Part shown: positions 1,244 through 10,616 of the stretch, piece after piece | Position numbering within the stretch: the first letter of the stretch is position 1 | How the letters are laid out: the number at the start of each line of letters is the position of its first letter | Translations under genes and position numbers: made by a program | Source of the DNA: a virus | Lineage: Duplodnaviria > Heunggongvirae > Uroviricota > Caudoviricetes | Reading direction: 5' to 3' (one strand) | IMG/VR virus record: IMGVR_UViG_2563366842_000009 | Length of the DNA: 29,651 nt | Notes under the pieces: model-generated | What the model was told of the DNA's origin: nothing | Databases searched by the model: none | What the model saw: the letters and a program-made list of their open reading frames with translations, nothing else

Positions 1244-1582
1244 TTATTCGCAAAGTGCTGTTGCGGCATCCATTACAGGATCCAAAGGAATTTTTACACC
1301 TGCATACTCTGGACTGTCTTTCCAAACAGCATCAATATTGCTCCCCTCAAGCTTTCCAGACTTTACTCCATCAATAGCAAAACCATTTAATGGGTATCGG
1401 TCATCAGTTGCTTTGTCGTACACAAAGGCATACTTACCGTTGACGCAAGACACCGTAGCTTTTTCAAAAGTTAACGGCCAATCATCACCAAACTTAGTGC
1501 CGTCTAAATCCTGTGTTTTTTCAGAGGCTAAGGAGCCAAAAGAAAAGGTAAGAAGCATAGCTAAAAAGAGTTTACGTTTCAT
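1244..1582 (-). CDS. Small secreted (signal-peptide) protein, cargo/moron between cI and int; function unknown
   Basis: Start taken at the internal Met (MKRKLFLAMLLTFSFGSLA|SE...) with an AAGGGA RBS 8 nt after the repressor stop; the track ORF extends to 1654 but that overlaps the repressor 3' end. Hydrophobic N-terminal signal peptide with an SLA cleavage-like site, no lipobox Cys. Local GC is visibly lower than the backbone. Confidence 0.6.
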   Translation of the reverse strand: MKRKLFLAMLLTFSFGSLASEKTQDLDGTKFGDDWPLTFEKATVSCVNGKYAFVYDKATDDRYPLNGFAIDGVKSGKLEGSNIDAVWKDSPEYAGVKIPLDPVMDAATALCE

Positions 1583-1590
1583 AATTTCCC

Positions 1591-2451
1591 TTATACGTGT
1601 TTTTCCAATGTGAAAACTACAACCCCGGCAGGCGTAATGTCGGTAATGTTGCATTCAAACTCAGCAGACTTATTTGACAACCTGACTTTTCCACCAGGTA
1701 AACGAATTACATCAAAAACATCAAGAGCGCCGTCGATATCAATTAACCAGCGGCCATTACTTATATTCGAAGCAGAACAGTCGACAAGCCAAGAGGCGGC
1801 CACACCGTCAACAAAAATCAATTCCCCTGAGTTAGAAGGAATCATTGAGGGGTCAGGCTGCCACGTTCCTGCGTCCTTAAGCTCACCAGATTCGAGGCGA
1901 GATTTTTTAATAGAAAAACCAGATGTGACACCTTCCCTGTTAGCTCGCATTTGCCCCTTGCCTGTTGCTAACCATTCCAGTGACGTATCGGTATCAAGAG
2001 CGCATGTAACAACAACATCACCGGGGAAAAAATCTCGCCTTACCCATGTGCTAATTGTGCCAGAGGAAATGCCGAGCAAATCACCAAGCTCCTTTTGCAT
2101 GGTAAAGCCGTACGCATCAAGAATCCTACGCAAAACGGTTTTACCACCATTCGTCATAATCTCGTCATAAAGCTCTTTGCCTTTTAACTTGCAACCGGCA
2201 CGCTCGCAATTTGCATTTGCAAGCTCTCCATTTACAAGCCAATTGATATCAGCTCCCGTGTCAAGACAACACCTAACTATGACGTTGCCAGGTATTGCAT
2301 CACGCTGAACCCAGCCGCTAACGCTGTGTTTAGCGATACCTAGCAGGTCAGCCAAATCCTTTTGCATCTTGACGCCATAGGCTGACATTAAGCGTTCCAA
2401 TACGCCGTTCGTTGCACTAACACGCCACTGAACATCAAGCTCAGAACTCAT
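1591..2451 (-). CDS. cI: CI-type immunity repressor (186 CI family) with a tandemly duplicated N-terminal HTH domain
   Basis: 286 aa. Two adjacent segments (about aa 16-78 and 106-166) are clearly paralogous (VLERLMSAYGVKMQKDLADLLGIAKHSVSGWVQRDAIPGNVIVRCCLDTGADINWLVNGE vs VLRRILDAYGFTMQKELGDLLGISSGTISTWVRRDFFPGDVVVTCALDTDTSLEWLATGK). The C-terminal part resembles the 186 CI C-terminal domain as I recall it (...WLVDI.GA......LPG.K......FEC...). Divergent from the Apl-like gene, upstream of int as in 186. Confidence 0.8.
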   Translation of the reverse strand: MSSELDVQWRVSATNGVLERLMSAYGVKMQKDLADLLGIAKHSVSGWVQRDAIPGNVIVRCCLDTGADINWLVNGELANANCERAGCKLKGKELYDEIMTNGGKTVLRRILDAYGFTMQKELGDLLGISSGTISTWVRRDFFPGDVVVTCALDTDTSLEWLATGKGQMRANREGVTSGFSIKKSRLESGELKDAGTWQPDPSMIPSNSGELIFVDGVAASWLVDCSASNISNGRWLIDIDGALDVFDVIRLPGGKVRLSNKSAEFECNITDITPAGVVVFTLEKHV

Positions 2452-2480
2452 AAAAACCCCTATAGATAATTTTATGGGTG

Positions 2481-2509
2481 TTTACAGAAAACTTTTTACG
2501 ATCTATAGT
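2481..2509 (+). promoter_or_regulatory. Candidate lytic promoter (pR analogue): -35 TTTACA (2481..2486), 17-bp spacer, -10 TATAGT (2504..2509)
   Basis: Sigma70-like hexamers with canonical spacing in the cI/apl divergent intergenic region, about 65 nt upstream of the ATG at 2573, which has an AGGAG RBS. Confidence 0.5.
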
Positions 2510-2572
2510 GGCGTTCATCGACCAAGATGCACACCACTGCACTACATTTCAAACAACAGGAGATAATGCGAT

Positions 2573-2926
2573 ATGTCAGATGCAAAATCAATCCCGCTGC
2601 ATGACACACAAAACTTACAAAATCAAACTGTATTGCTAGACGCTGGTCAGTTCAACGCGCTTGTAACCATGATGCAGCTATCCATGCAAAACATGATTCG
2701 TACAGCGATGTTAGACACCATGTCAGTAAAAGACTTCGCCGCCGCCCGTGGCGTTAGCGAGCGTCTGGTCTGGCAATGGATTGATGAGGGCGTCCTTCTC
2801 AAAGCTCCCACCAAAGATGTTACCAGCAAAGAAAAAGCCGCTAAGCGTAGCCGCACCCTTATCAACGTCAAAGCATGGCGTGACAAACTGACCCAGCAAG
2901 CTATCGATTGCCGTTATATCAACTAA
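2573..2926 (+). CDS. Apl/Cox-like small DNA-binding regulator/excisionase (putative)
   Basis: First gene of the rightward early operon, divergent from cI, the position occupied by apl in 186 and cox in P2. Contains an HTH-like segment (VKDFAAARGVSERLVWQWIDEG). No close recalled match, so assignment rests on position. Confidence 0.5.
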   Translation: MSDAKSIPLHDTQNLQNQTVLLDAGQFNALVTMMQLSMQNMIRTAMLDTMSVKDFAAARGVSERLVWQWIDEGVLLKAPTKDVTSKEKAAKRSRTLINVKAWRDKLTQQAIDCRYIN

Positions 2927-2976
2927 CAGTCATCGCTTAACTGAACTTGATTTTGCAAGTTAAAGGGAGTTACAGC

Positions 2977-3486
2977 ATGTTAGATTTTCGTGTTTCGTCA
3001 CATGCGCACTTTGACGAGGCCTGCAGAAAATTCGCAGCTACTCATAACGTGAAAGAACTAGCGAATAAAGCCGGAATCAAGCCGCATACGCTTTACAACA
3101 AACTCAACCCAGAACAGCCGCACCAGTTAACGCCGCGTGAAATCTGGACACTGACAGACCTGACCGAAGACTCGACTCTCGTCGATGGTTTTCTGGCGCA
3201 GATCCATTGTCTGCCATGCGTACCGGTCAACGAGCTGGCAAAAGAGAAATTGCAATCCTACGTCATGCACGCAATGAGTGAACTAGGCGAACTGGCAAGC
3301 GGTGCAGTTTCCGGCGACCGCCTCACGCCAGCCAAAAAACAAAACATGATTGCTAGCGTAAATGCGGGGATTCGCATGTTGTCATTATCGGCAATGGCGC
3401 TGCATGCACGCCTGCAGACTAATCCCGCTATGTCGAGCGTAGTCGATACTATGAGCGGTATTGGCGCATCGTTTGGTCTGATTTGA
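2977..3486 (+). CDS. cII: CII-like lysogeny-establishment transcriptional activator (186 CII family)
   Basis: Start chosen at ATG 2977 with AAGGGAG RBS, giving 169 aa. Strong similarity to 186 CII as recalled (LNPEQPHQ.TP, TDLTEDSTLVDGFLAQIHCLPCVPVNELAK, C-terminal NPAMSSVVDTMSGIGASFGLI). Confidence 0.85.
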   Translation: MLDFRVSSHAHFDEACRKFAATHNVKELANKAGIKPHTLYNKLNPEQPHQLTPREIWTLTDLTEDSTLVDGFLAQIHCLPCVPVNELAKEKLQSYVMHAMSELGELASGAVSGDRLTPAKKQNMIASVNAGIRMLSLSAMALHARLQTNPAMSSVVDTMSGIGASFGLI

Positions 3487-3493
3487 GGTGCGT

Positions 3494-3721
3494 ATGCTGA
3501 AAAGTGAACCGTCATTCGCGTCTCTGCTCGTTAAGCAAAGCCCCGGCATGCATTACGGCCACGGCTGGATCGCAGGTAAGGACGGCAAGCGCTGGCACCC
3601 GTGCCGCTCACAGTCCGAATTATTAAAAGGGCTGAAAACAAAGTCGCCGAAATCGTCAGGTTTTTTAATTATTCGTATTGTCCACTTTGTAATTAAAGGA
3701 GTGAAACATGTCACGCGATGA
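3494..3721 (+). CDS. Hypothetical early protein
   Basis: ORF immediately after cII with GAGGTG-like RBS before ATG 3494; the 3' part runs into an AT-rich island, so the true extent is uncertain. Confidence 0.35.
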   Translation: MLKSEPSFASLLVKQSPGMHYGHGWIAGKDGKRWHPCRSQSELLKGLKTKSPKSSGFLIIRIVHFVIKGVKHVTR

Positions 3722-3908
3722 ATTAAGAATTGTTTTGGGTGCCATGATTCCAAATATGGAGGAAGGTTTTGAAATTAAAACCCGCGACGGCGCAATACTT
3801 CGCGTTGACCCTGAGTGGGAGTGCTGCAAAGAATTTAAGGATGGATTAAAAGCCGAAATCATCAAGCAGTTAAAAAGCAAGCCTGCTGTTGTATTTGGAT
3901 ATAGTTAA
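3708..3908 (+). CDS. Hypothetical small protein (66 aa) in a low-GC island
   Basis: Strong RBS (AAAGGAG) 6 nt before ATG 3708. Surrounding DNA (about 3640..3960) is markedly AT-rich and bounded by ttaattaattaa, suggesting inserted cargo. Confidence 0.5.
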   Translation: MSRDELRIVLGAMIPNMEEGFEIKTRDGAILRVDPEWECCKEFKDGLKAEIIKQLKSKPAVVFGYS

Positions 3909-3974
3909 TTAATTAAACGTAATTACTTGGCGTAAACCCGCCGGGCATTCTTTTGCCAAAAATCAGGAGGATAT

Positions 3975-4208
3975 ATGAGTCGAACTATTTATTTATCAAC
4001 GCCGAGTAGTGCTGGCGACCACGTGCTGGAGTCTTTGTTTAAAGAAGCCAAAAAAGAAGAGCGCAAAGACCGCGCTCTCGCCGTTTCAATCCGTCTCGAA
4101 GCTCTGGCCGTTCACATTACCAATTCAGATATGACCGGCAAAGAAGCGGCCGAACTGTTGCGCCGTGAAGCAGCCCGCTTTGAGAACGAGTCACAGGAGC
4201 TGCACTAA
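3975..4208 (+). CDS. Hypothetical early protein (77 aa)
   Basis: AGGAGG RBS before ATG 3975; stop overlaps the next start (TAATG), indicating translational coupling. Confidence 0.6.
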   Translation: MSRTIYLSTPSSAGDHVLESLFKEAKKEERKDRALAVSIRLEALAVHITNSDMTGKEAAELLRREAARFENESQELH

Positions 4209-4429
4209 TGGCCGACGCAATTGATTTAGCACAACAGCGTGAGCAGGAAGACCGCGAGCGCCACATCAGCAACGCGCGCAGCCGTATCGCTGCGCCCTCT
4301 CGCTTCCTCTGCGAAGAATGTGACGCACCAATCCCGGAAGCTCGCCGCATTGCGATTCCGGGCGTGGCCTTTTGCGTGACATATCAGCAAATCGCGGAGC
4401 TCAAACACAAACACTACAGGGGCGTTTAA
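4208..4429 (+). CDS. TraR/DksA-family zinc-finger protein (P2 Orf82-like)
   Basis: 73 aa with CEEC...FCVT Cys motif and an N-terminal acidic coiled region; similar small proteins are conserved in P2-like early operons (recalled). Confidence 0.6.
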   Translation: MADAIDLAQQREQEDRERHISNARSRIAAPSRFLCEECDAPIPEARRIAIPGVAFCVTYQQIAELKHKHYRGV

Positions 4430-4819
4430 ATGGTTAATAAACACTTAACAGACAAGCGCGCGCGTCTGCGCAGGGCCGCTCAAGACTACCAATCTACATT
4501 ATCGTGGTATCAAGAAAACCTCGATAGTCCAAATGCAGAACAGGATTGCGATGAGGCAACCGCGGCATTTAAGCGCGAAATCGGCCATCGAGAGACAGAC
4601 ATTATTGCTGACCTGTTGGATGAAATAGACGAGCTCCGGGAATACCGAAAAGCTCGCATTGTTCCTGATGGCTGGATAGCAGTACCTTCGGAGCCTACTG
4701 GCGATATGCTGGCGCGAATCAAGCTTTCTGATATTTGGACAACCGAAGCGCTAACCACCAGATACAAAGACATGCTACGCGCCGCCCCTCGCGCGCCATA
4801 TGAGGGGATAAACAAATGA
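4430..4819 (+). CDS. Hypothetical early protein (129 aa)
   Basis: Translationally coupled ORF in the early operon. Confidence 0.55.
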   Translation: MVNKHLTDKRARLRRAAQDYQSTLSWYQENLDSPNAEQDCDEATAAFKREIGHRETDIIADLLDEIDELREYRKARIVPDGWIAVPSEPTGDMLARIKLSDIWTTEALTTRYKDMLRAAPRAPYEGINK

Positions 4820-5088
4820 GCATTAATATCAGTATTGGCGACAAATGGGTTATTACCAGCGACCAGTATCAATTCATCCTGAATGAAAAGAAGGTCGTTA
4901 AGTCTGGTAAAAAAGCTGGCGAGGAATGGCTCGACACCATCGGTTATTACCCCAAGATTAACCAGCTTATTTCCGGGCTGATTCATCATCATATTCAGCA
5001 GTCATCAATTACCACGCTTGACGCAATGGCATCTGAAATTGAGCGTATCGGAGAAATGTGCGCCTCCTCTATCAAGGCGGCGACATGA
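4816..5088 (+). CDS. Hypothetical early protein (90 aa)
   Basis: ATGA overlap with the preceding ORF; coupled early-operon position. Confidence 0.55.
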   Translation: MSINISIGDKWVITSDQYQFILNEKKVVKSGKKAGEEWLDTIGYYPKINQLISGLIHHHIQQSSITTLDAMASEIERIGEMCASSIKAAT

Positions 5089-5366
5089 GAAAAACACATC
5101 AACTAAAAATTCGGCCTGAGTTTTTTCAGGCTGTCATCAATGGAACGAAAAAAGCCGAGTTTCGTCTTGCTGACCGTGCTTTTGCTGTAGGGGATTTACT
5201 TTGCTTAAACGAGTATGGCCACTGCGAGTATGACCCGCAAAAGGTCGGGTTTACAGGGGCATTTGTCTACGTGCTGGTGACTCATGTAACTGACCTTAGC
5301 GAGTGGGCTCCTGGCTATGTGATGCTAAGCATACAGCGTAGGCAAATGGGGGAACTATGCGGGTAA
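5085..5366 (+). CDS. ASCH/DUF3850-like small protein
   Basis: Start at ATG 5085 (AAGGCGG RBS); the N-terminus (HQLKIRPEFFQAVINGTKKAEFRL.DR.F.VGD) resembles the ASCH-like DUF3850 fold as recalled. Confidence 0.55.
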   Translation: MRKTHQLKIRPEFFQAVINGTKKAEFRLADRAFAVGDLLCLNEYGHCEYDPQKVGFTGAFVYVLVTHVTDLSEWAPGYVMLSIQRRQMGELCG

Positions 5367-7591
5367 GCGTTAATTATGCTTACCCGTGGAACACTCCACG
5401 GTCGGCAATAGCCAGCCCATATCTTACCTATAACCAACAGCATCGCCGCGACCGTATGTTCGCGGCTTTGCTGCATGCGAGAAAGGTGCTTTCTCTGCAG
5501 CCTGAGTGCGTGCGATTTGACGTTTATCGCACCGCTGAAGTGCTGGAACAAAATCAGGGCAGTCAACGAGCCAATGCTTTTTTAATCAACTTCTGCAAAA
5601 AGGCATTGCCGCGTCTTGAACTGGTCGCAAAAAAATATGAGTGTGCAGGCATTAGCAGCGATGTATCAGGCGCTGTTTTCGGTGGTCATTTCGATACGAA
5701 ATATATGCAGTATCTGGCATCACGTATGGTCAATATGGTCGCCAGATACAACCGCCTCCCGGATATGTCGCGTGCCGACATTGACCTGCTTTCTGCTGAT
5801 ATCGCTAATTTTATTCGTGCTGAACTGGCAGAACATGATGACGCTGATTCACATTTCGGCGAGTTGGCGACATTACATGGCTGGTACATGCGCGCCGGAT
5901 TAATTGCGCTGCAATTTGGTGTTACTCCTCCTCATTGGGCGGGACTGACAACAAAATACTTTGACCAGGACAAAGCGGCGCCAGCAATCATGCGCATGTT
6001 TAATGAGGTTTGGTGGCGTGGCCGTCTGCGACGCATTGCTGCGTCATGGCGCGAACATCTGCAAATTGCAGTCGGTAATGTCAGCAAAAAACGACACGCC
6101 TACGCGAGTAAAAATTGTGTGACCGACTGGCGCGAGCAGAAGCGCCGCACGCGTGAATTTCTCAAAGGGCTGGATCTCGAAGACGAAGACGGCAACCGCA
6201 TCAGCCTGATTGAAAAATATGATGGCTCGGTCGCCAACCCTGCGATACGTCGCTGCGAGCTGATGACCCGCATCCGTGGGTTTGAAAATATCTGTAATGA
6301 ACTCGGTTATGTCGGGGAGTTTTACACCCTGACCGCGCCGTCTAAATATCACGCCACAACTAAAGCAGGCTACCGTAACAGCAAATGGAACGGAGCCAGC
6401 CCGTCGGACACGCAGAGTTATCTCACTGGCCTTTGGGCGCGCATACGCGCCAAGCTACACCGTGAAGAAATCCGCATTTTCGGCATCCGTGTTGCCGAGC
6501 CTCATCACGACGGGACGCCTCACTGGCACATGCTTATGTTTATGCTGCCGGAAGACGTTGAGCGTGTGCGCCTCATTATTCGCGATTATGCGTGGGAGGA
6601 AGACCACCACGAACTGAGAAGCGATAAAGCCAAAAAGGCACGTTTTCATGCCGAAGCCATTGACCCGGAAAAGGGCAGCGCTACCGGCTATGTCGCTAAA
6701 TACATTTCCAAAAACATCGACGGATATGCTCTTGATGGTGAAACCGATGACGAAAGCGGTGAGCTGCTGAAAGAGACAGCTCCCGCCGTATCAGCATGGG
6801 CGGCGCGCTGGCACATCCGTCAGTTCCAGTTTATCGGCGGTGCGCCGGTGACGGTCTACCGTGAATTACGTCGTCTCGCTGATACCGAGACCGCGCACGG
6901 TCTGAGCGTTGAGTTTGCTGCCGTCCATGATGCCGCTGACGCCGGTGACTGGGCTGGTTACGTTAATTCGCAGGGTGGTCCGTTTGTCCGTCGCGATGAT
7001 TTACAGGTGCGCACGCTGTATGAGCCGCGCCCCGAGTTTAACCAGTATGGTGAGGAAACCGTCTGCATTCGTGGCGTCTACGACTCTGCTGTCGGTGCTG
7101 GCACCCCGATTTTAACCCGGTTAACGCAGTGGAAAATTGTGCCGAAGCGTGCCGTTGATTTGGCCGTTGACGTTAAGGGCGCTCCTGCGCCCTCTCGGAG
7201 TTCTGTCAATAACTGTACGGGAAGCGAAAGCGATCCACCGGAACTCGATTTATCAAAACCCCTGAGTCGACGTGAAAGACGAGAGCTGACCAACCGACTC
7301 AGGAAGCAAAAGCCAGCAATACGGCGAAAATTCATCCACGGAACGGATGAGCAAAACGCAGCTATAGCTAAAACTATCGACGAGATACAACTGACAACCG
7401 GCATTACAATCGGCCGTGGCGAAGCCCTGCACCTGATGGCCGGTGGTAAAAGTTGTTTTGATGGCAAATGGCTACGCGGAACGGCCAAAGGAGAAATATT
7501 CTTAGCAGCACCATCGCATCAGGCTAAGGCTAGAAAAATCCTTTATCGTGTTGCTGCGATGGCTGAGGCATCAAAACCAATGCCTGAGTAA
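5357..7591 (+). CDS. A: Rolling-circle replication initiator endonuclease (P2 gpA family)
   Basis: 744 aa. HUH-type metal-binding motif (TPHWHMLMF) and catalytic tyrosine motif (GYVAKYISKNIDG) characteristic of P2 A / phiX174 A-type replicases; size and position match P2 gpA. Confidence 0.9.
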   Translation: MRVSVNYAYPWNTPRSAIASPYLTYNQQHRRDRMFAALLHARKVLSLQPECVRFDVYRTAEVLEQNQGSQRANAFLINFCKKALPRLELVAKKYECAGISSDVSGAVFGGHFDTKYMQYLASRMVNMVARYNRLPDMSRADIDLLSADIANFIRAELAEHDDADSHFGELATLHGWYMRAGLIALQFGVTPPHWAGLTTKYFDQDKAAPAIMRMFNEVWWRGRLRRIAASWREHLQIAVGNVSKKRHAYASKNCVTDWREQKRRTREFLKGLDLEDEDGNRISLIEKYDGSVANPAIRRCELMTRIRGFENICNELGYVGEFYTLTAPSKYHATTKAGYRNSKWNGASPSDTQSYLTGLWARIRAKLHREEIRIFGIRVAEPHHDGTPHWHMLMFMLPEDVERVRLIIRDYAWEEDHHELRSDKAKKARFHAEAIDPEKGSATGYVAKYISKNIDGYALDGETDDESGELLKETAPAVSAWAARWHIRQFQFIGGAPVTVYRELRRLADTETAHGLSVEFAAVHDAADAGDWAGYVNSQGGPFVRRDDLQVRTLYEPRPEFNQYGEETVCIRGVYDSAVGAGTPILTRLTQWKIVPKRAVDLAVDVKGAPAPSRSSVNNCTGSESDPPELDLSKPLSRRERRELTNRLRKQKPAIRRKFIHGTDEQNAAIAKTIDEIQLTTGITIGRGEALHLMAGGKSCFDGKWLRGTAKGEIFLAAPSHQAKARKILYRVAAMAEASKPMPE

Positions 7592-7664
7592 TTCATATCC
7601 ATATCATGCACATACAGCAATCACCCTATTCATTTTTTTCTTCCCATCTTTTACCAATACGTGC

Positions 7665-7684
7665 TACTGTATAAACATACAGTA
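7665..7684. promoter_or_regulatory. LexA (SOS) box TACTGTATAAACATACAGTA
   Basis: Perfect CTGT-N8-ACAG dyad with flanking TA/TA, about 20 nt upstream of a GGGAGGG RBS and ATG 7705; corresponds in position to the LexA-controlled p95/tum promoter of 186. Confidence 0.8.
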
Positions 7685-7704
7685 CACCCTATGGGAGGGA
7701 TTTC

Positions 7705-7887
7705 ATGGTTGGCGAACATTTCAGCCGAACGCAGCAAAAGTGGGCTTGTGTGCAATTTATCGCCGAGGTATCTCTGATTGCAAACTGCAAGCCATCAGAC
7801 TTAAAGCTCGCGCTCACTCTCATTGCAGACCTAGCAAACAGCGAAAATAACGAAACCGAAGATGATATTTTTTATAAGGCTGATTAG
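7705..7887 (+). CDS. SOS-operon ORF 1 (60 aa), possible N-terminal part of a Tum-like antirepressor
   Basis: Immediately downstream of the LexA box with a strong RBS; ends at TAG 7885..7887, in the same frame as the DinI-like ORF that starts one codon later. Confidence 0.55.
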   Translation: MVGEHFSRTQQKWACVQFIAEVSLIANCKPSDLKLALTLIADLANSENNETEDDIFYKAD

Positions 7888-7890
7888 ATT

Positions 7891-8124
7891 ATGAGAATCA
7901 ATATCACGTTGGATAAAGAGCAAAAAATTAGTCAGGCAACGTTGGATGCACTAGAGGCTGAGCTGTACCGCAATCTTCAACCTATTTACCCAAAGACTGC
8001 TATCCGCATTCGCAAGGGCTCCGCAAATGGTGTTGAGCTAAGCGGTTTGAAACTGGACGAAGATAAAAAACGAGTAATGGAAATCATGCAGCAAGTATGG
8101 GAAGACGATAGCTGGCTGCATTAA
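7891..8124 (+). CDS. DinI-family protein (Tum C-terminal-like module)
   Basis: 77 aa aligning along its length with E. coli DinI as recalled (MRI.[IV]T..K......A.DAL..EL.R......P......R.......LS........K.R..EI.Q..WE....W); low-GC region. Confidence 0.8.
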   Translation: MRINITLDKEQKISQATLDALEAELYRNLQPIYPKTAIRIRKGSANGVELSGLKLDEDKKRVMEIMQQVWEDDSWLH

Positions 8125-8130
8125 TAAACG

Positions 8131-8165
8131 CCGCCAGCGCTGAAACTCGCTTTCAGTGCTGGCGG
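8131..8165. terminator. Hairpin between convergent genes (15-bp stem with 1 mismatch, loop ctcgc); candidate bidirectional terminator
   Basis: ccgccagcgctgaaa / tttcagtgctggcgg inverted repeat located between the DinI-like stop (8124) and the stop of the minus-strand 312-aa gene (8198). Confidence 0.5.
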
Positions 8166-8197
8166 GGTTGAACAACGAGCTACGCGAGGCGTTAGTG

Positions 8198-9136
8198 TTA
8201 ATTTAGTTTTAATGAATGGTACTCAACCGAGTCGACCTTAGATTTGATATATGTACAATCATTTACAGAGAGTAATGCTGCTAGTAAGCGACATACCAGA
8301 GCCTGCATTTCTCGTAATATATCATCACCATATTGACCGCCATTAACACTGGAGAAACCAAGCGGTTGACCATAGAAAATAGCCTCATGAAAATTATCAT
8401 TGCGGATGGTTGTAATATTTTTTTTGCCTGTTACCCATGAAGGACGTGGTATGCCATAGGTTTCGCACAGCCACTTTAACCGCCTGGAATGATTTAACGT
8501 TTTTTCAGGGCACTTGTTTTTTTCTGCCCACGCTAAAGCAAAGCAACCATCCAATGCCATATAAAGATAATGGAACTTTTCAAATGAAAGGTATTGTGGG
8601 TTGTGAGATAAAAATAGTGCGTGCACCACTGCCGCTATTTTTATTGGTGATTTCTCTTTTTTTTGCTCGCTAGATATGTAATTGAGAGCCAATTCTATGA
8701 TTGCTTTTTCAGAGCATCTGCCGAGAGTAAAGTCTGTTAACTTAGCAGGCTTGATGGGGGTTGCATCTAAAAAACCAGCTTCGGTGGTTGTTAATCTCAT
8801 CCCCCTGAAAAAAGACAGGCACCACACAACAAAGTTGAGAGTTTCTAGCGAGGATGTATTTTTTAATTTTAGTATGTGCGTTTTTGGTAATCCGAATACT
8901 CGGCAACTATAAGGCATTGTGGATATGCCGCCATTAAAGTTATATATCTCTTGGTTTCCGGGGTATATCCAGCCATTAACAACATTTTTGTCATTGTTAA
9001 CGCGCTCTACTTTCTCAGCGAGGCCGGGTAAAGTAAGTAAAGAAAAATTTTCAGTCTCAATGTTAACTTCTACTGGATAGTATCCAAACTCAGATCCAAT
9101 CTCATCGGGCTGCTGTTCGGTAACTTCACCTTGCAT
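8198..9136 (-). CDS. Orphan 312-aa protein in the A-cos accessory hotspot; candidate anti-phage defence or abortive-infection protein, function unknown
   Basis: Good RBS (GGAG 6 nt before ATG at 9136); low GC relative to the phage backbone; no signal peptide or obvious transmembrane segment; occupies the old/tin position of P2. Contains an R-N-x-x-x-H motif (RNDNFH, 8387..8404), which is only weak evidence for a HEPN-like RNase. Confidence 0.7.
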   Translation of the reverse strand: MQGEVTEQQPDEIGSEFGYYPVEVNIETENFSLLTLPGLAEKVERVNNDKNVVNGWIYPGNQEIYNFNGGISTMPYSCRVFGLPKTHILKLKNTSSLETLNFVVWCLSFFRGMRLTTTEAGFLDATPIKPAKLTDFTLGRCSEKAIIELALNYISSEQKKEKSPIKIAAVVHALFLSHNPQYLSFEKFHYLYMALDGCFALAWAEKNKCPEKTLNHSRRLKWLCETYGIPRPSWVTGKKNITTIRNDNFHEAIFYGQPLGFSSVNGGQYGDDILREMQALVCRLLAALLSVNDCTYIKSKVDSVEYHSLKLN

Positions 9137-9569: not shown

Positions 9570-10616
9570 TTATTCCGGGTTATCGAGGGTGTACTCTTTG
9601 AACCTGATGACCTCCATGCCGAGCCAGTCGTTTACCTCCCTGAACCTGTCCTGCAGCGGCGACAGCTCGTTACGCACAAATACCTTTGCCACCTTCTCAA
9701 CGTCACCGAGCGAGCCGATATTCTCGGGCTTACCGCCCATTAGCTGGAAAGGTACGCGGTGCGCATCCATCAGGTCGGCGGCACTGGCTTTCTTGATATT
9801 GAAAAAGTCATCCTTTGTGGCGACCTCGCTCAGTGGCACGATTTTTATGCCGTCCGGTTTTCCACCGGGGGCGTAGAAAAACAGGTTCTTAAAGTTGCCG
9901 AGCCCTTTCGAGTTGCGCATCGCCTCGCGTAGTGATTCGACGTCGGTCGCACTCTGCGCCGGGTCGGTTACATACATGATGTAACCCGCGTGCGCGCCGT
10001 TCTGGTAATACTTGCGGCGGAACAGCGTTGCGGATTCATTCAGCCAGGCAGAATTAAGCGCGCTGAGATATTCCGGCAGGCCGTAAATCTCCTGATTAAT
10101 GTCAGGCTCCAGCAGGTGAAACACGGTATCAGGCGCGAACTCATGCGGCTGAGTGAAGTTTTCCACAAACCAGAAAATTGAATCATCAACCCCACGGCGG
10201 GTGTATTTTGCTGGTGATGCCAGCAACTTGATTAACTGGCCGGTGACGCTGTGGCGCTGCTCAAGAAAAGCGTTGCCGAAGACCAGATAGTCGAGCGCAA
10301 AACGGCTGAAATCCTGACGGGACAGCAGCGGGTGCGGAATGTAGGTGCTCGCGAGCACGTTGCGTTTAACGTAAATCGGTGAGCTGTGATGCACGGCAGA
10401 GCGCAGGCTCTTTGCCAGCCCGGAAAAGCTGACCGGCGGCTCGTACCATTTGCCGTTACTGATGCACTCGACATAATCCAGAATGTCGCGCTTATCGAGC
10501 ACCGGAACTGGCTCACCGAAGGTGAACGCTTCCATTTTTTGCGGTGCGCTGGCTTTCAGTTGCTGTGGTGCGCGTGTTTTCTGCGCGGCGGCTTTGCGGG
10601 ATTTTTGCTTACCCAT
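9570..10616 (-). CDS. Q: Portal protein (P2 gpQ family)
   Basis: 348 aa; extensive recalled similarity to P2 Q (MEAFTFGEPVPVLD.RDILDYVECISNG.WYEPPVSF.GLAKSLR.AVHHSSPIYVKRN.LAST...). Start overlaps the stop of P. Confidence 0.95.
   Translation of the reverse strand: MGKQKSRKAAAQKTRAPQQLKASAPQKMEAFTFGEPVPVLDKRDILDYVECISNGKWYEPPVSFSGLAKSLRSAVHHSSPIYVKRNVLASTYIPHPLLSRQDFSRFALDYLVFGNAFLEQRHSVTGQLIKLLASPAKYTRRGVDDSIFWFVENFTQPHEFAPDTVFHLLEPDINQEIYGLPEYLSALNSAWLNESATLFRRKYYQNGAHAGYIMYVTDPAQSATDVESLREAMRNSKGLGNFKNLFFYAPGGKPDGIKIVPLSEVATKDDFFNIKKASAADLMDAHRVPFQLMGGKPENIGSLGDVEKVAKVFVRNELSPLQDRFREVNDWLGMEVIRFKEYTLDNPE

Follow-up and report, generated by a model that had tools for sequence, protein, structure and literature searches.

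The phage DNA analyzed here (a stretch of 29,651 nucleotides from a member of the Caudoviricetes, IMG/VR record IMGVR_UViG_2563366842_000009, which we refer to as the window) carries, directly upstream of its replicase gene, five small genes whose stop and start codons run into one another, and the question raised by this locus is what these genes are and why they are joined so tightly to each other and to the replicase. The original prediction of five small ORFs chained by overlap or abutment, the last of which overlaps the replicase start, agrees exactly with the coordinates and junctions that we find. All lie on the plus strand: gene 1 (3975–4208, 77 aa), gene 2 (4208–4429, 73 aa), gene 3 (4430–4819, 129 aa), gene 4 (4816–5088, 90 aa) and gene 5 (5085–5366, 93 aa), followed by gene A (5357–7591), which encodes a rolling-circle replication endonuclease (PF05840, 440.7 bits; phrog_91, 942 bits). 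The four junctions within the chain are, in order, TAATG (1-nt overlap), TAAATG (abutting), ATGA (4 nt) and ATGA (4 nt), and gene 5 overlaps A by 10 nt (A start at 5357; junction sequence ATGCGGGTAA). For gene 5 we favor the ATG at 5085 over the GTG at 5058 that would give a longer ORF, because an identical 93-aa DUF3850 protein is present in NCBI and the same 282-nt gene is found in phage Midge. The only strong free-standing Shine-Dalgarno sequence of the chain is that of gene 1 (AGGAGG, 5-nt spacer), and every chain gene has a purine-rich stretch 4–8 nt upstream of its start.

Several lines of evidence indicate that these are real genes. Four of the five proteins exceed a Pfam gathering score, and the remaining one, that of gene 3, matches a PHROG profile at 2.5e-55. 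The dN/dS values against relatives, calculated for the four genes with same-length comparators, are 0.12–0.19 (0.19 for genes 1 and 4 and 0.12 for gene 5, with gene 2 in the same range), while for gene 3 the loci offer no diverged DNA sequence of equal length for such a comparison. Identical sequences for all five proteins have already been deposited in public databases. The minus-strand ORFs that lie across or beside the chain (4510–4992, 4117–4350, 4226–4444 and 5315–5566) gave no match in the PHROG search and are treated as shadows. A scan of positions 2400–8200 against Rfam assigned no family, the best hit being a sub-threshold archaeal snoRNA at chance level (22.9 bits vs. 45), and a scan for internal promoters gave a single weak 9/12 site, located within dhr, with fewer sites in total than in shuffled sequences. 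A PADLOC search likewise matched genes 1–4 to no defense-system protein, and gene 5 gave just a marginal 23-residue match to PDC-M11B (E = 6e-4), from which nothing meaningful can be read.

The window represents a phage 186-like (Eganvirus) element, in which the chain corresponds to the orf79–orf84 segment of 186 with two genes exchanged. The 186 order Orf79-Orf80-Orf83 is kept in genes 1, 2, and 4 (93.5, 78, and 74% identity, respectively), in agreement with the annotation of 186 (U32222), and the same is true of the flanks, with 81% identity for cII, 100% for both Fil and Dhr, and 85% over the N-terminal 300 residues of A. The segment is also bounded by the same terminators. A tR1-type intrinsic terminator (3926–3954, plus strand) between dhr and gene 1 is identical to 186 tR1 at 29 of 29 positions and is detected as well by a terminator scan (stem 3926–3945, then a T run), and a tM1-type terminator (5445–5472, plus strand) inside the 5′ coding region of A is identical to 186 tM1 at 28 of 28 positions, with a predicted hairpin of –21.8 kcal/mol (z –3.2). 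The window matches the 186 segment tR1-orf79-orf80-orf81-orf83-orf84-A-tM1 in its position after cII-fil-dhr and in its stop/start overlaps. It differs in that the positions of Orf81 and Orf84 hold unrelated genes, the DnaQ/RNase T-like exonuclease Orf81 being replaced by the 129-aa helical protein of gene 3 and the PAPS-reductase-like Orf84 (334 aa) by the 93-aa DUF3850/ASCH protein of gene 5. Both replacements are common mosaic ones that occur in many related prophages. The junction with A is also different (10-nt overlap in the window vs. 4 nt in 186, with another hairpin and unlike first few A codons), and the immunity region, which encodes a CI with two HTH and a Cox-like protein of 117 aa, differs from that of 186.

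The arrangement of the chain is therefore not new, and this is an ordinary early-gene stretch of a 186-like phage. The original prediction had allowed that the locus would be routine if it simply held the conserved 186 early genes of known function, and that is largely what we find with respect to conservation, given the Orf79, Orf80, and Orf83 orthologs in the 186 order and the identical tR1 and tM1, but not with respect to function. U32222 labels the 186 orfs of this segment “unknown function; not essential”, so that conservation and description have not brought a known function with them. A literature search on 186 orf79–84 found nothing relevant. As it stands, the result is a re-identification of described, non-essential 186/P2 early genes in a mosaic relative and in itself matters little.

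The same scaffold is recognizable at greater distance in the Pe operon of P2 (cox-orf78-B-orf80-orf81-orf82-orf83-A-orf91), where the genes for the DUF2732 protein, the TraR-like protein, the DUF5405 protein and A follow one another in the same order as in the window, with overlaps of 1, 1, 4, and 11 nt and with a putative terminator before the DUF2732 gene, although the proteins share only 35–48% identity with those of the window. P2 differs in having Orf81 between the DUF2732 and TraR genes, in having nothing on either side of Orf83, and in the placing of its DUF3850 homolog, Orf91, which is coupled to A at the 3′ end and not, as in the window, at the 5′ end. A closer counterpart is found in Escherichia phage Midge (PV287706) and in a prophage of E. 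coli MRSN346647, both of which have the order DUF2732-TraR-DUF5405-DUF3850-A and, like the window, a 10-nt overlap and the same hairpin. The parts in common are ~91–92% identical at the nucleotide level. In both, a DUF5347 gene takes the place of the dhr of the window, and the first cargo slot (see below) is empty because gene 3 is absent.

Comparison of 83 related chains shows an architecture of three conserved scaffold genes (DUF2732, TraR-like, and DUF5405) and two exchangeable slots that flank DUF5405. Only the scaffold genes are present in 25 of the 83, and the others hold many combinations of cargo, so that gene swapping is common in this family. The cargo of relatives includes a DnaQ-like exonuclease, Lar-containing proteins, PAPS-reductase-like proteins, a DpdA-like transglycosylase and DNA methyltransferases, and that of the window is a protein with an Ead/Ea22 module in slot 1 (gene 3) and a DUF3850/ASCH protein in slot 2 (gene 5). 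Gene 1 encodes a DUF2732 protein (PF10809, 78.6 bits vs. a cut-off of 25; phrog_128) that is the ortholog of 186 Orf79 and of P2 Orf80 (35% identical to the latter) and occurs in identical form on at least 1000 contigs. Gene 4, which lies between the two main cargo slots, encodes a DUF5405 protein (PF17399, 69.4 bits vs. a cut-off of 21.6; phrog_33705 and phrog_154), the ortholog of 186 Orf83 and of P2 Orf83 (48% identical to the latter). The genes 1, 3, and 4 had been listed as unassigned, which is half right, as two of them belong to these named families and the third is without a Pfam match. Sequence searches of the PDB with genes 1 and 4 gave only chance-level matches (designed helical proteins and galectin-8), the AF2 model of gene 4 (38 sequences; mean pLDDT 52) is too poor to use, and a literature search on DUF2732, DUF5405, and DUF3850 found no functional study. 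We also considered P2 Orf81 as a distant DUF5405 paralog, with which it shares the PHROG label “replication initiation protein”, but an hhalign probability of 5% leaves that relationship unsupported.

The slot 1 cargo, gene 3, is present in three of the 83 chains. Its best profile is phrog_16519, the match noted above, and it has no match in Pfam (including hits at E ≤ 0.1), NCBIfam or PADLOC. Over 85 residues it is 41% identical to a P22-like EaA protein, and its N-terminal helical hairpin module is common to mosaic lambdoid “Ead/Ea22-like” and P22 EaA proteins. Homologs of gene 3 are modular, with a shuffled C-terminal module of ~50 aa after the N-terminal one, and the N-terminal module also occurs in proteins that bear PF13935 (P0067–P0069) or are named Ead/Ea22-like in their source records. 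Because the sharing is limited to this module, we do not place gene 3 in the Ead/Ea22-like family (PF13935). As a true homolog of lambda Ea22 it was rejected (hhalign probability 1%, no PF13935 match), which leaves the shared module alone. The AF2 model (pLDDT 78.5) has helices at residues 4–29 and 36–75, that is, a plain helical hairpin. A Foldseek search of the PDB with this model produced no hit at E < 1, so that the fold gives no clue to function. The slot 2 cargo, gene 5, had been predicted to be ASCH-like, a label borne out by the profile scores (DUF3850, PF12961, 67.9 bits vs. 22.9; ASCH, PF04266, 22.8 bits vs. 21.2; phrog_986) and by a match to PDB 3iuw (E = 2.6e-7 over residues 4–83). 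Its residues G20–R27 read G-T-K-K-A-E-F-R and thus fit GxKxxExR, which we take to be the signature motif of the original description of the ASCH domain. Gene 5 is 41% identical to P2 Orf91, and DUF3850 proteins are found in 26 of the 83 chains, in either slot (in slot 2 in 23). DUF3850 has been described as PUA-like (bioRxiv 10.1101/2025.10.10.680097).

The feature of the chain that points to a mechanism is its last junction. An RNA hairpin of 13 bp with a 5-nt loop is predicted at 5358–5388 (plus strand), in which the 5′ arm contains the UG of the A start codon together with the UAA stop of gene 5 (5364–5366), and the 3′ arm is conserved A coding sequence for Y-A-Y-P. The hairpin, –19.7 kcal/mol on its own, is predicted to close the ribosome-binding site of A, and the predicted fold of 5300–5420 (–51.6 kcal/mol, z –3.9) was equaled in stability by no shuffled sequence. 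Among the starts scored in the window, those of A and genes 1–3, the predicted opening energy is 17.2 kcal/mol for A and 7.6–12.6 kcal/mol for the others. Across the related chains the median for A is 15.0 kcal/mol (n = 66) compared to 8.1 at 248 other starts, 80% of A starts exceed the 90th percentile of those other starts, and the median is at least 12.9 in nine of ten independent junction classes, although the classes are few and the sequences within one class are related. Other cargo classes form different predicted hairpins at the same place over the A start. In the DUF3850 junction class (19 distinct sequences) the changes are single-sided or wobble with no double compensatory change, and since the 3′ arm is under coding constraint from A as well, the support for the hairpin comes only from its recurrence across classes. 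The spacing of the junctions is equally regular, as nearly all of ~320 junctions in the 83 chains fall between –11 and +4 nt and very few lie beyond +4, the main offsets being –4 (86), –1 (85), 0 (60), –8 (33), and –10 (23), and they stay this tight where genes have been swapped.

Based on these data and on the 186 record, we propose that the chain hands ribosomes to A by way of upstream translation, an account that as a whole we consider probable, with the coupling in the window phage deduced from predicted structure and from 186. The region corresponds to 186 orf79-orf80-orf81-orf83-orf84-A and would make up the delayed portion of the early lytic (pR) operon in this 186-like temperate phage. 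Transcripts from pR would pass apl/cox, cII, fil, and dhr and, as in 186, enter the chain only by read-through of tR1. Ribosomes would then load at the Shine-Dalgarno sequence of gene 1 and be passed from gene to gene by termination-reinitiation at the overlapping or abutting stop and start codons. The final hand-over would be the decisive one: the A start and the preceding stop both fall within the 5′ arm of the stable predicted hairpin, which would keep the A ribosome-binding site closed. A ribosome completing gene 5 would melt this hairpin and open the site, and A would therefore be translated mainly when this happens. If A is not translated, tM1, ~90 nt into A, could end the transcript. 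With this arrangement, replicase levels would stay low and depend on upstream expression. The small proteins themselves would be dispensable accessory factors, three of them scaffold and two in exchangeable slots. The predicted hairpin and the 10-nt overlap fit the GenBank record of 186 (U32222), which states that [quoted passage not shown] and describes tM1 as the [quoted passage not shown]. A hairpin rebuilt by unrelated cargo would thus offer a concrete and testable mechanism for an old observation on A translation in 186.

Any such proposal must be weighed against the simpler view that the overlaps are mere compaction of a phage genome, with each gene including A initiating alone and the hairpin having no regulatory role. 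The purine-rich stretch before every chain start is in keeping with that view, as are the missing compensatory covariation in the DUF3850 junction class and the AUG that is predicted to be mostly unpaired in some junction classes, such as the L042-type PAPS-reductase class, and because each internal gene has a recognizable Shine-Dalgarno sequence some independent initiation is likely. Compaction does not explain, however, why the 186 record ties A translation to that of orf84, why opening the A ribosome-binding site is predicted to cost far more than at the 248 other starts on the same mRNAs, why unrelated cargo genes should each rebuild a hairpin over the A start, or why the offsets remain tight despite gene swaps, and we regard it as improbable. 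Less probable still, to the point of being hard to maintain, is the idea that all five products work as a single dedicated functional module, jointly reprogramming host transcription and modifying nucleic acid as a complex or pathway, with the coupling serving to fix their stoichiometry. Complexes of fixed stoichiometry are often tightly coupled, and the TraR-like and ASCH-like members both have to do with nucleic-acid machinery, but the members are gained and lost independently (scaffold only in 25 of the 83 chains, gene 3 in three, DUF3850 in 26), DUF3850 occupies either slot and lies downstream of A in P2, and all these genes are dispensable in 186.

The DpdA-like, PAPS-reductase-like, DNA methyltransferase, and Lar cargo of the slots points to a counter-defense role for the DUF3850 protein and gene 3, and in some relatives homologs of gene 3 in the same slot are fused to a Lar restriction-alleviation domain, as in P0015 (locus L087). 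It is conceivable, although we hold it to be rather unlikely, that the slots beside DUF5405 serve 186/P2-like phages as an unrecognized, early-expressed counter-defense hotspot for anti-restriction or DNA modification, with gene 3 as a new anti-restriction factor and the DUF3850/ASCH protein as another such factor or a new handler of modified nucleic acid. Such a hotspot would differ from the published gpA-gpQ and int-att defense hotspots, and incoming cargo would need to keep the stop/start coupling and to rebuild a hairpin over the A start. The exo-xis region of lambda (orf73, ea22 and others) resembles the window in combining small dispensable early genes and in placing a TraR homolog beside a mosaic Ead/Ea22-type protein, but it differs in its genomic position, in its coupling to the replicase and in that gene 3 and Ea22 have no detectable similarity.

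The TraR homolog of the window, gene 2, had been called TraR/DksA-like, and profile searches (zf-dksA_traR, PF01258, 33.0 bits vs. 24.9; TIGR02419, 68.4 bits vs. 59.7) and matches to the structures of TraR (5w1s, E = 4.3e-9) and YbiI (2kgo, E = 1.6e-9) confirm this. It is the ortholog of 186 Orf80 and of P2 Orf82 (48% identical to the latter). Like the RNA polymerase secondary-channel regulators F-plasmid TraR and lambda Orf73, it is ~73 aa long, carries DxxDxA at its N-terminal end, has the CxxC-x17 spacing and ends in a helix. The DxxDxA motif, which is defined as lying at the helix tip (PMC9239242), is intact in the N-terminus MADAIDLAQ (D3, D6, and A8). The zinc finger is not, as it reads CxxC-x17-CxxY (CEEC-x17-CVTY) rather than CxxC-x17-CxxC, the Tyr (Tyr59; TAT, 4382–4384) aligning with the last Cys of TraR and YbiI. 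The protein is therefore TraR-family by descent but an allele without one of the defining features. P2 Orf82 is the reverse, with four Cys but without A8 of DxxDxA. [quoted passage not shown] The suggestion that the chain modulates host transcription thus has experimental backing in a homolog, but the loss of the fourth zinc Cys weakens its extension to the window, where the activity of the TraR-like protein is for that reason uncertain and the protein may be inactive.

We give about even chances to the gene 2 allele being a decaying, loss-of-function one that is still translated in the relay but no longer acts on RNA polymerase. In the nearest relative (L005) gene 2 differs only in having Cys (TGT) at this codon, the Tyr of the window arising through a single G-to-A change, and four Cys are present in 115 of 120 cluster representatives and in all 79 TraR-like genes of other loci. 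Isolated ligand losses of this kind (Cys to Tyr, Cys to Phe) are sporadic among relatives, and the authors of the TraR study found no TraR homolog without a C4 finger (PMC9239242). Decay is less readily reconciled with the occurrence of this exact allele in two E. coli accessions, on separate contigs, with the intact reading frame and tip motif, with DksA2 and some DksA homologs that function without a zinc finger, or with the presence of Tyr at the fourth ligand on three sequence backgrounds, those of the window, P0072 (97%), and P0159 (84%). A natural TraR-family allele with Tyr at this position is a ready test of the need for the C4 finger.

The five consecutive plus-strand ORFs are present in the window exactly where the original prediction placed them, at 3975-4208, 4208-4429, 4430-4819, 4816-5088 and 5085-5366 (genes 1 to 5), followed on the same strand by the replication gene A (5357-7591, 744 aa), and they are real genes. 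Four are assigned to Pfam families above the gathering score, DUF2732 (gene 1), zf-dksA_traR (gene 2), DUF5405 (gene 4) and DUF3850 plus ASCH (gene 5), and gene 3 belongs to phrog_16519 (2.5e-55). The dN/dS values against relatives are 0.12-0.19 for the four genes having comparators, the antisense ORFs of the chain region have zero PHROG matches, and no Rfam families were found in that region. NCBI already holds identical sequences for all five proteins, those of genes 1 and 3 from at least 1000 contigs each, with Salmonella predominating. The proposed overlaps and abutments are borne out by the stop/start junctions, which are TAATG (1 nt), TAAATG (abutting) and ATGA twice (4 nt each), and the end of gene 5 overlaps the start of A, as had also been claimed, by 10 nt. 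Gene 1 has a strong, free-standing Shine-Dalgarno sequence (AGGAGG), and the other genes have weaker purine-rich stretches, each within the end of the preceding gene. The start of gene 5 is the ATG at 5085, because the 93-aa product is identical in NCBI and the same gene is annotated in phage Midge.

The window is a phage 186-like element, with the order integrase, CI repressor, Cox/Apl-like gene, cII, fil and dhr, then the chain, then A. By nucleotide search it is as a whole ~90% similar to Eganvirus SEN1, PSP3 and related phages such as SW9 and Midge, and for 3400-5600 the top match is 186, at 93.6% identity and a coverage of only 61%. Fil and Dhr do not differ from their 186 counterparts (100% identity), and the terminators tR1 (3926-3954) and tM1 (5445-5472) match those of 186 base for base. 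The 186 record (U32222) has the order dhr, tR1, orf79, orf80, orf81, orf83, orf84 and A, with overlaps all of 1 or 4 nt and tM1 ~90 nt into A. That the five might simply be the conserved 186 early genes holds for genes 1, 2 and 4, which are Orf79 (93.5% identity), Orf80 (78%) and Orf83 (74%), but not for genes 3 and 5, which have no counterpart there, their positions being held in 186 by Orf81, an RNase T/DnaQ-like exonuclease, and Orf84, a PAPS-reductase-like protein. P2 has the scaffold Orf80, Orf82, Orf83 and A in common (35-48% identity), whereas in that phage the DUF3850 homolog (Orf91) has its coupling with A at the latter's 3' end. The TraR- and ASCH-like members from which a role in host transcription or nucleic-acid modification had been suggested are recovered by profile, and that reading is supported in part. 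The chain itself is the one already known from the early genes of 186 and P2, with cargo swaps of a common kind.

The immunity region (1591-2451, minus strand; 2573-2926, plus strand) differs from the 186 type. The window CI (1591-2451) has 286 aa and two tandem Phage_CI_repr HTH domains, compared with 192 aa for 186 CI, and a 117-aa Cox-like protein (phrog_3554; 2573-2926) stands in place of 186 Apl. The adjoining cII, fil and dhr are 81-100% identical to 186, and the mosaic boundary is therefore sharp.

The gene chain was walked from DUF2732 to A in 80 IMG/VR loci encoding a DUF5405 homolog and in 186, P2, Midge, an E. coli prophage and the window, with counts taken over 83 chains. The scaffold DUF2732, TraR, DUF5405 and A stands alone in 25 of the 83. 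Slot 1, between TraR and DUF5405, holds an exonuclease like 186 Orf81 in 19 chains and gene 3, Lar-containing proteins or DUF3850 in three each, with an orphan in one further chain. Slot 2, between DUF5405 and A, holds DUF3850 (23 chains), PAPS-reductase-like proteins (nine), a C5 DNA methyltransferase (four), another methyltransferase (one) or a protein with 90% identity to SEN1_38 (four), the last carrying the PHROG label 'queuine tRNA-ribosyltransferase', i.e. DpdA-like. Less often, cargo occupies a third slot, between DUF2732 and TraR. The exact five-gene combination of the window recurs among the 83 chains only in the related locus L005. On the basis of this census the chain is one more mosaic in a family with many members, and its arrangement is not new. 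The DUF3850 gene precedes DUF5405, in slot 1 rather than slot 2, in loci L037, L050 and L061 and follows A in P2, so that the same cargo can take at least three positions around the replicase. Some DUF5405 homologs, namely P0239, P0240, P0299, P0301, P0303 and P0309, have 157 aa and a C-terminal DUF7415 domain (PF24187).

The ASCH-like label of gene 5 is upheld by profile, the product being a DUF3850/ASCH (PUA-like) protein with a GxKxxExR motif and a match to PDB 3iuw; DUF3850 has no assigned function in the literature. Of the three members originally left unassigned, genes 1 and 4 do fall in families, although these are still DUFs, and gene 3 has its PHROG only. The gene 3 protein is modular, with a helical-hairpin N-terminal module, common to many mosaic lambdoid proteins, followed by a shuffled C-terminal module. 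In locus L087, from a related prophage, slot 1 holds a 215-aa fusion of gene 3 to the restriction-alleviation domain Lar (P0015, 2501-3148); the next gene there (3145-3549, 134 aa) has no Pfam match, and both keep 0-4-nt junctions. On comparison, gene 3 had no detectable relationship to lambda Ea22.

Every sequence test places gene 2 in the TraR family, as first labelled. Its P2 ortholog, Orf82, binds RNA polymerase at the DksA site, inhibits rrnB P1 with an IC50 of 250 nM and is reported to halt cell growth on overexpression (PMC9239242); the DxxDxA motif is complete in the gene 2 protein but not in Orf82. The zinc finger of gene 2 is CxxC-x17-CxxY, with Tyr at the fourth zinc ligand (TAT, 4382-4384), where L005, the nearest relative, has TGT (Cys) in an otherwise identical protein. 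All four Cys are kept in 115 of 120 cluster representatives and in 79/79 TraR-like genes of other loci, and the TraR authors had not identified homologs without a C4 finger (PMC9239242). Judged from sequence, there is no obvious sign that the Tyr allele is an error, since the exact protein occurs under two E. coli accessions (among them WP_001550181.1) and Tyr occupies the fourth ligand on two other backgrounds, P0072 and P0159.

Junction offsets are nearly all -11 to +4 nt regardless of gene content (~320 junctions, 83 chains), the commonest being -4 (86 junctions), -1 (85), 0 (60), -8 (33) and -10 (23). U32222 notes that 'translation to end of orf84 appears necessary for translation of A protein' and describes tM1 as the 'expected terminator for lytic transcripts in absence of translation of A gene'. 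In the window, the 5' arm of a predicted 13-bp hairpin at 5358-5388 (-19.7 kcal/mol by itself) takes in the gene 5 stop codon UAA together with UG of the A start codon, and the 3' arm is the conserved stretch of A that codes for Y-A-Y-P; the 121-nt context of the A start has a predicted fold of -51.6 kcal/mol (z = -3.9). Other junction classes differ in sequence, yet each has a predicted hairpin at or around the A start. The predicted energy to open -15 to +12 around the start has a median of 15.0 kcal/mol for A starts (n=66) and 8.1 for other starts of the same chains (n=248); 80% of A starts exceed the 90th percentile of other starts, and the median is at least 12.9 in 9/10 junction classes. 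In the window A scores 17.2, and the three other starts scored (genes 1-3) 7.6-12.6. One junction class is an exception, with its AUG mostly open, and no compensatory covariation of the hairpin was found within a class. We propose that a ribosome terminating at the upstream stop would melt the hairpin and free the A start; this structure, predicted throughout and for few junction classes, would fit classical termination-reinitiation. The first few codons of A (window 5357-5390; A starts of L001-L084) vary with the upstream cargo gene, and the recombination joint therefore lies inside A. Each cargo class brings its own sequence pairing around the A start, in many cases with the conserved stretch coding for YAYPW.

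For P2-like phages, hotspots have been published at gpA-gpQ and int-att, and very few anti-defence genes have been detected in these phages (PMC9122126, PMC13586616). The early-operon slots around DUF5405 belong to neither of these hotspots. The genes they carry tend towards DNA modification and restriction alleviation, a trend that, read from position, would be the one mildly new lead here.

Elsewhere in the window, a 312-aa ORF (8198-9136, minus strand) lies between A and a 348-aa ORF (9570-10616, minus strand), which we take from position alone to be the portal gene Q. This is the location of the gpA-gpQ defence hotspot, and the 312-aa ORF is a candidate defence gene; it has no Pfam or PADLOC match and only phrog_5937, whose function is unannotated. 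Just downstream of A, a 60-aa phrog_1993 ORF (7705-7887, plus strand) precedes a gene for a DinI-like protein (7891-8124, plus strand; PF06183, phrog_189), which probably corresponds to the antirepressor Tum of 186. Between int and cI, a 136-aa ORF (1244-1654, minus strand) encodes a DUF2511 protein whose Pfam/PHROG-matched part starts at an internal Met with a signal-peptide-like sequence (MKRKLFLAMLLTFSFGSLA), and it looks like a lysogenic-conversion (moron) gene.
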